Origin: Chloroflexota bacterium
Lineage (GTDB): Bacteria > Chloroflexota > UBA11872 > VXOZ01
Length of the DNA stretch: 64,000 nucleotides
Assembly (NCBI GenBank): GCA_965220045.1
Contig: OZ244803.1
Location: forward strand, 2,074,913-2,138,912
Direction: 5' to 3'
The translations under genes were made by a program, and so were the position numbers. Below, piece by piece: positions 17,238 to 50,943 of the stretch. Numbering within the stretch: the stretch's first letter is position 1; each line of letters opens with the position of its first letter. The notes under the pieces are model-generated. The model saw nothing but the letters and a program-made list of their open reading frames with translations, was not told the DNA's origin and made no database searches.

Positions 17238-18331
17238 GCGCCGAGAAAGCGCCCGCTCGCCTGGTCGCGGAGCTATCCTCACGCCGCGATCCCGTGTATG
17301 CCTACCTGCAAGCGGCGCTTGGCCGCAACGCGTTGCGCTCTCTCCATCTGGGAGAAGCGGTCGCCCACTACGTGCAACAACCGGGCAAGGGTCTGCGGTC
17401 CAGCATGCTCATGATGAGTTGCGGTGCGACCGGCGGCGCCGAACGGGTTGCTGTCCCTGCCGCCGCCGCGGTAGAACTCTTTCACATCTGGACGCTGGTA
17501 CATGACGACATCATCGATCAGGACGACACGCGCCGCGGCAGGCCGACCGTGCACGCGAACTTTGCCGCGCGCGCTCAAGAGGACCTGGGCCTGACCGCTG
17601 GCGATGCCGCTCACTATGGGCTAACGCAAGCCCTGCTGGCGGGGGACATTCAGCAGGGGTGGTCCGCCGCTCTGCTTACGGAATCTGCCACTCAATTCGG
17701 CGTCGATGCCACGCTCGTGCTTCGCCTCATTGCGGAGCTCTTTGGCCCGGTGGAAGCGCACCTCGTTGACGGCGAGGCGCTTGACGTGCAGTTCAGCCTG
17801 CAAGCGCTCGAATCCGTCGCTGAAGCGGACATACTCGACATGATGCGCAAGAAGACTGGCGTTCTCTACGCATTCGCCGCCACGGCCGGCGCGTGCATCG
17901 GTCTGAATGCTTGGCTGCCCGACGATCCCGTTGTGAAGGCGCTTACCGACTTTGCGCGCAATTGCGGGCTGGCCTTCCAACTGCAAGATGACGTGCTCGG
18001 CATCACTGGAAACGCAGCAGCCACTGGCAAGCCCGTCGGCGCGGATATTCGGGAAGGTAAGCGCACGCTCATCGTGAAGGAAGCCCTGCGCAATGCTGCG
18101 CCCAAGCAACGCGGGACTCTGCTTGATACCCTCGGCAACCGCACGGCCCCAGATGAAGAGATAGCCACCGTAACGCGACTGTTACAGGACTTGGGGGGTG
18201 TAGCTTACGCTCAATCGCTCGCACGCACGTACATTGATCAGGCACACGACAACTTGACGCACGTGCAGCGCCAGCCCTATCGAGACCTCTTGCACGCAGT
18301 GGCGGACTTCGTCCTGGAACGTGACTCCTAA
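17234..18331 (+). CDS. polyprenyl (geranylgeranyl-type) diphosphate synthase
   Basis: LVHDDIIDQDDTRRG (first Asp-rich motif) and FQLQDDVLG (second). The GTG start overlaps the galU stop (GTGA). Confidence 0.85.
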   Translation: MSAEKAPARLVAELSSRRDPVYAYLQAALGRNALRSLHLGEAVAHYVQQPGKGLRSSMLMMSCGATGGAERVAVPAAAAVELFHIWTLVHDDIIDQDDTRRGRPTVHANFAARAQEDLGLTAGDAAHYGLTQALLAGDIQQGWSAALLTESATQFGVDATLVLRLIAELFGPVEAHLVDGEALDVQFSLQALESVAEADILDMMRKKTGVLYAFAATAGACIGLNAWLPDDPVVKALTDFARNCGLAFQLQDDVLGITGNAAATGKPVGADIREGKRTLIVKEALRNAAPKQRGTLLDTLGNRTAPDEEIATVTRLLQDLGGVAYAQSLARTYIDQAHDNLTHVQRQPYRDLLHAVADFVLERDS

Positions 18332-49406: not shown

Positions 49407-50165
49407 ATGAACGTTGACAAACGTCGCATCATGGCGGGCCTTCGAGAGCTTGGCGTCGTTCCCGGCGATCACTTGCTCGTCCACAGCTCCTTGCGCAGCT
49501 TTGGCTACGTTGCAGGGGGCGCCGACACCGTAGTCGATGCACTCCTCGAGACTGTTAGCGAGAGCGGCACCGTTCTCGTGCCCACGTTGACCTTCTCGAT
49601 CCTCAAGTCTTACCCGCATGTGTTTTCCGTGGAACGAACTCCGTCGTCTACCGGACGCATAACCGAGACTCTTCGTCAGCGTAAAGGGGCTTTGCGCAGC
49701 GCGCATCCCGTTTCTTCCGCCGCGGCCATTGGATCGCAGGCTGCTTTTCTCACCGCCGCACACCGGGATACGCCTTGCGGCCCAGACTCGCCATATTTCC
49801 GCCTGTACGAATTGGGCGGTAAGGTCGTCTTCTTTGGGGCGTCGCTCGGCAGCAATTCGGTCTTTCACTGCGCGGAGGAAATCGCCAGTCCTGCCTATTT
49901 GGGCTTCGCAACGATCGAGGATGCCATCGTGGAGCACATGGACGGCCGCCGGCACACCGTCACCGCCCGCCGTTACGACTGCTCTGATCGCGGGATTTCG
50001 CGCCACCTCGGCAATATGGAACCCATTTTTCTCGAGCGGGACCTTCTGCGCCGTGCCACGATCGGCCGGAGTAGGACGTACGTCATCAACGCGCGGGACA
50101 ACGTCGAGGTTTCGTGTGAGATCTTGGCGGAAGACCCAGGGTACATCCTTGCGCCGCTCAGCTAA
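49407..50165 (+). CDS. aminoglycoside N3-acetyltransferase-family (AAC(3)/Antibiotic_NAT) protein
   Basis: LRELGVVPGDHLLVHSSLRSFGYVAGGADTVVDALLE, TLTFS and HCAEE motifs. 252 aa from ATG 49407. Confidence 0.75.
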   Translation: MNVDKRRIMAGLRELGVVPGDHLLVHSSLRSFGYVAGGADTVVDALLETVSESGTVLVPTLTFSILKSYPHVFSVERTPSSTGRITETLRQRKGALRSAHPVSSAAAIGSQAAFLTAAHRDTPCGPDSPYFRLYELGGKVVFFGASLGSNSVFHCAEEIASPAYLGFATIEDAIVEHMDGRRHTVTARRYDCSDRGISRHLGNMEPIFLERDLLRRATIGRSRTYVINARDNVEVSCEILAEDPGYILAPLS

Positions 50166-50304
50166 CTACATATAGCTCATTCAACACTTTATGGAAACTA
50201 CATACTGTGCTATAGTGGTGACTGTCTAGTTCCGAGGCGGCTAGTTTGCTGGCAACTGCGTAGCCGGCTCGCGCAATCTATCTGTAGTCTGGGGAGGTAT
50301 GCCC

Positions 50305-50943
50305 ATGCGCTGCCCGCAATGCGCCAAGCATGACACCCGAGTGGTAGACAGTCGACCGGAAGAGATGAGCATCCGCCGCCGCCGCGAGTGCGGCAACTGC
50401 GGCCACCGCTACACCACGTATGAGCGTCTGGAAGTCCTCGCCTGTCCGCACTGCGAATCAATTGAATCCCGCGTCGCGTCCTACCAATTGTTGAGGGCCG
50501 GCTCGCGACGATTTCGCGAGTGCCTGCGCTGCGGCAGAGAGTTTACGACGACTGAGCGCGTGGACACTGTTCCGCTCACGGTAGTCAAGCGCGACGGCAG
50601 GCGCGAGGAGTTCAACCGGGGCAAGTTGCGGGACAAGATCAGCACGGCCTGCTGGAAGCGTCCGGTGAGTTCTGAGCAAGTGGGCAGCATCGTTGACGGC
50701 ATCGAACGCGACCTACTCGCACTGGGCGAGCCCGAAGTAGAGTCCACCGTTATCGGCGATAGGGTAATGCAGCGGTTGCGCGTTCTCGATGAGGTTGCCT
50801 ACGTGCGGTTTGCCTCCGTGTATCGCCATTTCGAAGACATCGACAGCATTGCCGAAGAGATCGCTGACTATCAGCAGTGGAAGCGGCGGCGCGCTCAGCC
50901 CGATCAAATTGCGCTGCTGCCGGAAGAAACGACCATCCCATAG
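50305..50943 (+). CDS. nrdR: transcriptional repressor NrdR with duplicated N-terminal zinc ribbon
   Basis: MRCPQC...CGNC, then a second CPHC...CLRC, then the ATP-cone (VVKRDGRREEFNRGKL ... VAYVRFASVYRHFEDI). ATG 50305 has GGAGG at 7-nt spacing. Confidence 0.9.
   Translation: MRCPQCAKHDTRVVDSRPEEMSIRRRRECGNCGHRYTTYERLEVLACPHCESIESRVASYQLLRAGSRRFRECLRCGREFTTTERVDTVPLTVVKRDGRREEFNRGKLRDKISTACWKRPVSSEQVGSIVDGIERDLLALGEPEVESTVIGDRVMQRLRVLDEVAYVRFASVYRHFEDIDSIAEEIADYQQWKRRRAQPDQIALLPEETTIP

Follow-up and report, generated by a model that had tools for sequence, protein, structure and literature searches.

The nrdR gene in a 64,000-nucleotide stretch of a Chloroflexota genome (assembly GCA_965220045.1, contig OZ244803.1, positions 2,074,913 to 2,138,912; hereafter the window) encodes a protein in which two tandem zinc ribbons, rather than one, precede the ATP-cone. 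NrdR is a near-universal bacterial repressor of deoxynucleoside triphosphate synthesis that has been studied as an antibacterial target. Its mechanism depends on how paired zinc ribbons and paired ATP-cones are placed within tetramers and oligomers of higher order. The protein described here is probably a genuine and functional NrdR, an ATP/dATP-sensing repressor whose tandem ribbon duplication has become fixed across a Chloroflexota clade. For the division of labor between its ribbons, we favor an arrangement in which pairs of the first ribbon (ribbon 1) read the operator boxes and the second (ribbon 2) serves as a dimerizing spacer that is blind to DNA. The two-ribbon protein is apparently an undescribed variant of this well-known regulator.

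Two zinc ribbons ahead of one ATP-cone

The gene and the parts of its product are listed below. Homologous proteins and genomic loci are referred to by P and L numbers, respectively.

50305-50943 (+): nrdR coding sequence, 212 aa plus stop codon, based on the list of open reading frames (ORFs), the translation, and TIGR00244
50305-50436 (+): zinc ribbon 1, the putative canonical DNA-reading head, with the best PF22811 stretch (residues 3-42)
50437-50568 (+): zinc ribbon 2, a diverged copy, with the second PF22811 stretch
50578-50838 (+): ATP-cone (nucleotide-sensing), PF03477, 80.9 bits, residues 94-180 of the 214-aa ORF
50839-50940 (+): variable C-terminal tail (…QQWKRRRAQPDQIALLPEETTIP), based on alignment A1 (16 sequences) and on low predicted local distance difference test (pLDDT) values from AlphaFold2 (AF2)

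The ORF itself extends from 50299 to 50943 (+) and translates to MPMRCPQC…TTIP (214 aa), with an in-frame ATG at 50299 as an alternative start that adds the residues MP. The start is probably the ATG at 50305 (MRCPQC), because the sequence GGAGG (50293-50297) lies 7 nt upstream and because the close homologues P0001-P0004 begin with MRCP. An exact look-up of the 214-aa form returned no identical entry on record.

In the 214-aa numbering, the CxxC motifs fall at positions 5 (CPQC), 31 (CGNC), 49 (CPHC), and 75 (CLRC). Both units are exactly 44 residues (132 nt) long, and in each of them 22 residues separate the two CxxC pairs. Unit 1 ends with RYTTYERLEV and unit 2 with EFTTTERVDT, and a linker of the usual short type (ERVDTVPLTVVKRDG) joins ribbon 2 to the ATP-cone. 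An earlier note, made from the letters of the window, had described this spacing and the order of two ribbons followed by a cone, and both are as it had read them. It had placed the second copy at 50437-50571; the copy indeed begins there and occupies 50437-50568, and the final codon of that range lies beyond it.

Profile searches gave the same layout. The protein scores 200.1 bits against the NCBIfam equivalog TIGR00244 for NrdR (cut-off 124.65) and 82 bits against PF22811, the Zn_ribbon_NrdR family (cut-off 27.2), in two separate stretches. We also built a hidden Markov model (HMM) of the canonical ribbon from 297 single-ribbon NrdRs. In a six-frame scan, this HMM matched ribbon 1 with 70 bits and ribbon 2 with 37 bits and found nothing else in the 64-kb window. 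In another scoring against this HMM, ribbons 1 and 2 of the protein gave about 76 and 43 bits, and the averages over two-ribbon proteins were 74 and 46 bits. Thus, the check with profile HMMs that had been proposed for this gene matched the ribbon twice, with PF22811 and with our own HMM, and the cone once. A six-frame scan of the window likewise recovered only one ATP-cone. By every sequence criterion the protein is an NrdR, and it departs from the family solely in its architecture.

The AF2 model, which was computed using alignment A1, has a mean pLDDT of 80.3 and comprises two three-stranded ribbons followed by the cone. The strands of ribbon 1 span residues 11-18, 22-29, and 35-41 (pLDDT 81-92), and those of ribbon 2 span residues 55-63, 66-73, and 79-85. 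The second copy is therefore predicted to fold as a zinc ribbon in the monomer, which the earlier note had left to a structural check. The full protein has a predicted template modeling score of 0.54, and the N-terminal 108 aa have one of 0.44. Values of pLDDT are lower at the junctions (68 and 62), which suggests that the modeled ribbons can move relative to each other. A Foldseek comparison with the PDB returned NrdR structures for all top matches (9fxk, 9fvr, 9gex, 7p37, and the integrative model 9a6n; E values of about 1e-15), and phmmer against PDB sequences agreed, with E. coli and S. coelicolor NrdR as the best matches. All NrdR chains matched in the PDB have one ribbon, with 145-153 residues modeled, as would be expected if canonical NrdR carries a single ribbon.

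A conserved second ribbon that has lost its reading residues

Ribbons 1 and 2 of the window protein are identical at 16 of 44 residues and at 66 of 132 nt (50%). The in-register identities amount to 23, 23, and 20 of 44 at codon positions 1, 2, and 3, and the longest exact word common to both copies is 9 nt (CGCGAGTGC). Furthermore, the two-ribbon layout recurs in about 25 protein clusters of 47-96% identity that derive from many independent Chloroflexota assemblies. Homologues P0001-P0004 are 81-96% identical to the window protein, and P0006-P0012 and P0014-P0017 are 47-55% identical to it. The layout is also present in P0122, P0123, P0125, P0126, P0269, P0270, and P0124, the last of which is of doubtful origin. 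A second homologue search with an N-terminal profile added only P0269 and P0270.

We then looked up clusters formed at 90% identity: five of them hold 69, 59, 58, 21, and 12 members, and the other five hold 1-10. Members lie on contigs of up to 5.2 Mb and come from NCBI, ENA, JGI, and Logan, and all named members come from Chloroflexota metagenome-assembled genomes (MAGs). A scan of genome contigs with the N-terminal profile gave one clear two-ribbon genome, L001, among the matches listed, and the longer matches that were translated (L002, L003, L006, L027, L041, and L074) are single-ribbon.

Every sequence in alignment A1 has all eight cysteines. We computed ratios of nonsynonymous to synonymous substitution rates (dN/dS) among the window, L001, and L081/82, where dS is about 0.7-2. 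These ratios are 0.04-0.07 for ribbon 1, 0.03-0.07 for ribbon 2, and 0.02-0.05 for the ATP-cone. Because the value for ribbon 2 matches those for ribbon 1 and the cone, purifying selection on ribbon 2 is as strong as on the remainder of the protein. Given that the copies have diverged and share no long repeat, that the architecture recurs in independent assemblies, and that ribbon 2 is under purifying selection, the second ribbon is an old in-frame duplication and not an assembly stutter. This agrees with the proposal of an old 132-bp domain duplication in the earlier note.

The residues through which NrdR contacts DNA and dimerizes have been described in two species. In S. coelicolor NrdR, D15 and R17 serve as the base readers, and the contacts to phosphates come from R12, R26-29, and R37 (PMC9110341). 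In E. coli NrdR, two ribbons meet at beta-3 (residues 39-45) to make a six-stranded sheet, held together by R27, R29, and E42, and the DNA face consists of D15, R17, R26, R28, and R37 (PMC12176259). The substitution E42A turns the E. coli protein monomeric (bioRxiv 10.1101/2025.03.28.645925). Both ribbons of 92 two-ribbon proteins were aligned to the canonical HMM, and their residues at these positions are given below in E. coli numbering.

Four cysteines, Zn ligands: ribbon 1, 98-100%; ribbon 2, 100%
D15, base reading: ribbon 1, D in 96%; ribbon 2, D in 0% (S/Q/K/E)
R17, base reading: ribbon 1, R in 100%; ribbon 2, R outside the four commonest residues (E/Q/S/A)
R26, DNA face: ribbon 1, R in 100%; ribbon 2, R in 76%
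R28, DNA face: ribbon 1, R in 100%; ribbon 2, R in 44%
R37, DNA face: ribbon 1, R in 100%; ribbon 2, R in 67%
R27, dimer interface: ribbon 1, R in 97%; ribbon 2, R in 100%
R29, dimer interface: ribbon 1, R in 100%; ribbon 2, R in 98%
E42, dimer interface: ribbon 1, E in 100%; ribbon 2, E in 100%

In the 212-aa numbering, ribbon 1 of the window protein has D15-S16-R17, R24-R27 (the RRRR motif), R35, and E40, and thus has the complete set of residues that the NrdRs of E. coli and S. coelicolor are known to use for DNA contact and dimerization. Ribbon 2 retains the dimer triad (R69, R71, and E84) and is substituted at four positions of the DNA face, where D15 is replaced by S59, R17 by Q61, R28 by F70, and R37 by E79. 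The loss of the DSR segment from the second copy (VVDSRP to VASYQL) is as claimed in the earlier note. Judged from these residues, ribbon 1, which is distal to the cone, is a complete reading head, and ribbon 2, which is proximal to it, is predicted to bind zinc and to be competent for dimerization but blind to DNA sequence.

Ribbon 2 sequences from different subgroups are 0.39-0.57 identical to each other, compared with 0.32-0.48 for ribbon 2 against any ribbon 1. Because the ribbon 2 copies resemble each other more than they resemble any ribbon 1, the comparison favors a single old duplication for subgroups A-E. Three single-ribbon proteins of 153-157 aa (P0321, P0380, and P0327) nest inside two-ribbon subgroup D (P0010, P0017, and P0269). 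Their lone ribbon has a start like that of ribbon 1 and a junction to the cone like that of ribbon 2, which suggests either the state before the duplication or a secondary loss of one unit by recombination. The cone of P0124, which is known solely from an 847-bp contig (L090), groups with other sequences (P0243, P0262, and neighbors), and this protein may stem from a separate duplication event that took place outside the main clade of Chloroflexota.

A few database entries contain repeats of other kinds. In P0130 (179 aa, with an apparently incomplete C terminus), CKGKRKAETS connects two ribbons of identical sequence. These reflect either a duplication of very recent date or an artifact of assembly, unlike the diverged copies in the window. 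P0121 (261 aa) and P0163 (221 aa) contain partial internal repeats, which begin again midway through a ribbon or a cone, and these are probably chimeric or collapsed assemblies.

Two-ribbon proteins are deposited under the names “transcriptional regulator NrdR” or “ATP cone domain-containing protein” (HJO06432.1, MCY3694344.1, and MYD95088.1). The earlier note had allowed that this architecture might already be the common annotated form in its lineage. Within a clade of Chloroflexota the architecture is indeed common, and its entries bear the plain name NrdR, but we found no paper in the literature that describes a two-ribbon NrdR. Public gene calls from GenBank and JGI are also often truncated, and begin inside ribbon 1, at ribbon 2, or past both. 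Examples are P0005 (171 aa), P0013 (187 aa), MCY4438545.1 (169 aa), and cluster members of 122-125 aa. The true start of P0013 in L086 is a GTG at 2695, and P0270 (L091) has an ATG upstream of its called start. Such calls strip the real DNA-binding head from the predicted protein and hide the two-ribbon architecture.

Operator, promoter, and genomic context

Two candidate NrdR boxes and a putative promoter lie directly upstream of nrdR.

50163-50178 (no strand assigned): candidate NrdR box 1 (TAACTACATATAGCTC), 10/16 match to ACACWATATATWGTGT, with C4 and G13 present
50195-50210 (no strand assigned): candidate NrdR box 2 (AAACTACATACTGTGC), the sole box in the window scoring at least 12/16
50188-50216 (+): putative nrdR promoter, with -35 TTTATG (50188-50193), a 17-nt spacer with box 2, and the extended -10 TGCTATAGT (50208-50216)

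The two boxes are 32 bp apart from center to center and form the only such pair in the 64-kb window, for which shuffled sequences give a chance expectation of 0.12 pairs. A search with the strict NrdR-box consensus, allowing up to 3 mismatches, found none in the window, and a relaxed score based on C4/G13 was needed. Box 2 is nearly identical in L001 and L081/82. In both, a box with C4/G13 recurs 32-33 bp upstream of box 2 in the same register, despite diverged sequence. The block ATGGAAaCTACATAcTGTGsTATAGT is conserved in the window, L001, and L081/82, and its flanks have diverged. Because this block is conserved amid diverged flanks, we infer that it marks the nrdR promoter; a strict scan for sigma-70 promoters and terminators around nrdR called nothing. 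A third box-like 16-mer (AATCTATCTGTAGTCT, 11/16) is located at 50275-50290, just upstream of the ribosome-binding site. We dismissed it as an NrdR box and regard it as a probable chance match, and it is not conserved in L001 and L081/82.

Relatives of the window gene have a similar operator. In the Dehalococcoidales MAG locus L086/87, which belongs to the subgroup of P0006 and P0013, a two-ribbon nrdR heads an nrdR-nrdJ-dcd operon, in which nrdJ encodes a 769-aa class II ribonucleotide reductase (RNR). Upstream of this operon are two boxes, TACCTAGATCTTGTGG and GCACAACATGTAGTCA, which are 32 bp apart, together with TTGACA and a -10 element. The two-ribbon loci L091 and L092/93 each have one box pair, also 32 bp apart. 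Thus, two-ribbon loci from two subgroups (L001, L081/82, L086/87, L091, and L092/93) have 16-bp boxes spaced by 32-33 bp. Among single-ribbon loci from many phyla, the spacing is 31 bp (4 loci), 32 bp (6 loci), 33 bp (1 locus), or 41-42 bp (3 loci).

The earlier note had suggested that a two-ribbon NrdR could read a differently spaced or extended operator. On the evidence of these candidate boxes, the operator geometry for two-ribbon NrdR is canonical, and the proposal of an altered operator is therefore unsupported. The other possibility raised in that note, a change in oligomer-dependent DNA binding, is plausible in view of the dimer-interface residues that ribbon 2 retains. As a separate observation, L094 (9901-9956), which carries a two-ribbon nrdR of the P0126 subgroup, has one good box (ATACTAGATGTAGTGG) whose sole partner is 40 bp away. 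This spacing would belong to the long-spacer class described for streptococci.

A scan of ten ORFs of the window, among them all six with 500 aa or more, found no RNR gene; these ORFs encode PurL, UPF0182, FtsH-like, RecQ, and similar proteins. In the window's own lineage, nrdR is not adjacent to nrd genes within flanks of up to 10 kb. Immediately upstream of nrdR is a gene of the aminoglycoside 3-N-acetyltransferase family (PF02522; 49389-50165, +), and the stop codon of this AAC(3)-like gene overlaps candidate box 1. L081/L082 preserve the same order: AAC(3)-like gene, nrdR, VanZ-like gene, and, on the opposite strand, mnmE. The sole tRNA in the window is tRNA-Val (anticodon GAC) at 17735-17810 (+), and a search of all 64 kb against Rfam gave no family at or above its gathering score.

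Possible roles of the second ribbon and comparison with known NrdRs

In the arrangement that we favor, each palindromic 16-bp box would be read, as it is in E. coli and S. coelicolor, by ribbon 1 pairs from two chains. Ribbon 2 retains the zinc ligands, the beta-3 strand, and the Arg/Arg/Glu salt-bridge triad, and so could form a second ribbon dimer behind ribbon 1. With the base-reading Asp and Arg gone, along with about half of the phosphate-binding arginines, this dimer would be blind to DNA and would act as a rigid spacer or an extra clamp that sets the DNA head apart from the ATP-cone. The cones, by sensing nucleotides, would govern the availability of the DNA heads. The expected outcome is repression of the protein's own gene in the window lineage and of nrdR-nrdJ-dcd in the sister lineage, where in each case two boxes 32 bp apart overlap the promoter. 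The architecture and its conservation, the residue patterns, the selection on ribbon 2, and the operator geometry are observed directly; we infer which ribbons pair, the lack of DNA contact by ribbon 2, and the nucleotide dependence of repression.

Several observations weigh against this arrangement. Homotypic pairing (1:1 and 2:2) is deduced only from residue conservation and from boxes with both half-sites. The box search demanded C4 and G13, so their presence in the boxes is partly built in, and the independent evidence for both half-sites is only the in-register recurrence of C4/G13 in diverged sequences. No boxes were found upstream of nrdR in subgroups B and E and in P0122. Ribbon 2 retains several arginines (the R12 equivalent in 94% of sequences and the R26 equivalent in 76%), and it may make non-specific DNA contacts. 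The AF2 monomer models give no confident orientation of ribbon, ribbon, and cone and no confident packing of ribbon 1 against ribbon 2. RNR regulation in this genome is extrapolated from a relative of about 55% identity, and no nrd gene is present in the window. Finally, a neighbor-joining tree of ATP-cones, which has no bootstrap support, leaves deep nodes unresolved, and cannot decide between one origin with losses and several origins, does not unite the two-ribbon proteins in one clade.

One alternative is that ribbon 2 pairs with ribbon 1 of the same or the partner chain through the beta-3 and Arg/Arg/Glu interface, which we consider unlikely. Such hetero-pairing would yield either a built-in decoy, by which the DNA head is masked when the protein is in its inactive ATP state, or a different oligomer topology, such as one in which dimers replace the canonical tetramers. 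The full dimer triad is kept in both ribbons, and the lower pLDDT values at the junctions suggest that the ribbons are mobile. Moreover, canonical NrdR is inactivated by burying the DNA face of its ribbon pairs in dodecamers or filaments (PMC9110341, PMC12176259), and a mask acting in cis is conceivable. However, beta-3 of ribbon 1 runs almost directly into the first zinc knuckle of ribbon 2, and with so little linker, folding back in cis is sterically doubtful. Both half-site positions (C4 and G13) are also kept in the boxes, which points to a pair of heads reading each box, and AF2 offers no confident contact between the ribbons.

It is rather unlikely that ribbon 2 is a built-in regulatory partner of ribbon 1, in cis or in trans, that has changed the on/off switch of NrdR. 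In one version of this idea, an intramolecular mask of the DNA head would replace the dodecamer or filament sequestration of S. coelicolor and E. coli NrdR; in another, the repressor would be based on dimers instead of tetramers. If ribbon 2 does play such a part, these proteins would constitute a natural experiment on rewiring the coupling between ribbon and cone in NrdR.

We regard it as quite improbable that ribbon 2 also touches DNA in a way that alters the operator through longer boxes, changed spacing, or flanking contacts. Its net positive charge, the several arginines at phosphate-contact positions, and the good box of L094 with its sole partner 40 bp away would fit such an extended contact. 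On the other side, the box length and the 32-33 bp spacing of two-ribbon loci are indistinguishable from those of single-ribbon loci, the base-reading residues are missing from ribbon 2 in all subgroups, and the spacers of the window, L001, and L081 have, by eye, only the putative -35 in common.

Lastly, a misassembled or decaying, functionless second ribbon is highly improbable: although some database entries look artifactual (the identical ribbons of P0130 and the partial repeats of P0121 and P0163), the copies in the window are merely 50% identical in nucleotides, the architecture is found in dozens of independent assemblies, including multi-megabase contigs, and the cysteines and dimer triad are conserved at about 100%, with dN/dS at 0.03-0.07.

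If ribbon 1 reads and ribbon 2 acts as the spacer, the two-ribbon variant would represent a natural separation of ribbon dimerization from DNA reading, functions that overlap in canonical NrdR. It also raises the question of how far the spacing between head and sensor can change with the same 32-bp operator still bound.

In the structural papers, NrdR is a protein of 140-220 residues made up of a single ribbon and a single cone (PMC9110341, PMC12176259). The window protein shares with the canonical NrdRs of E. coli and S. coelicolor (9FVR, 9FXK, 9FZF, 9GEX, 7P37, and 7P3F; TIGR00244) the same PF22811 ribbon and the NrdR-type ATP-cone, and over the aligned part it is 42-45% identical to the E. 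coli protein and 35% identical to that of S. coelicolor. Paired 16-bp boxes 32 bp apart that overlap a putative promoter, and the class II RNR context in a relative, are further likenesses.

The closest single-ribbon ATP-cones are those of the single-ribbon Chloroflexota NrdRs P0018, P0044, and P0032, which are about 58-65% identical to the window cone. The C-terminal tail of the window protein is common to the nearest of these relatives, P0018 and P0044, which have the same tail motif, QEWKRRxE…. The single-ribbon Chloroflexota nrdR-nrdJ loci L003, L015, and L032 likewise have the same operator layout upstream of nrdR as the two-ribbon loci.

Domain duplication within the NrdR scaffold also occurs in NrdR-like proteins with one ribbon and either two cones (P0019, 252 aa, from a Zixibacteria MAG, and P0102, 255 aa) or three (P0137, 373 aa), but there it is the sensor and not the DNA-binding domain that has been duplicated. 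Unlike canonical NrdR, the 212-aa window protein has two ribbons, of which the degenerate one adjoins the cone. The extra 44-residue zinc module displaces the DNA head from the nucleotide sensor, and two Zn sites per chain are predicted. The window protein is therefore an architectural variant of NrdR and not a non-member of the family.

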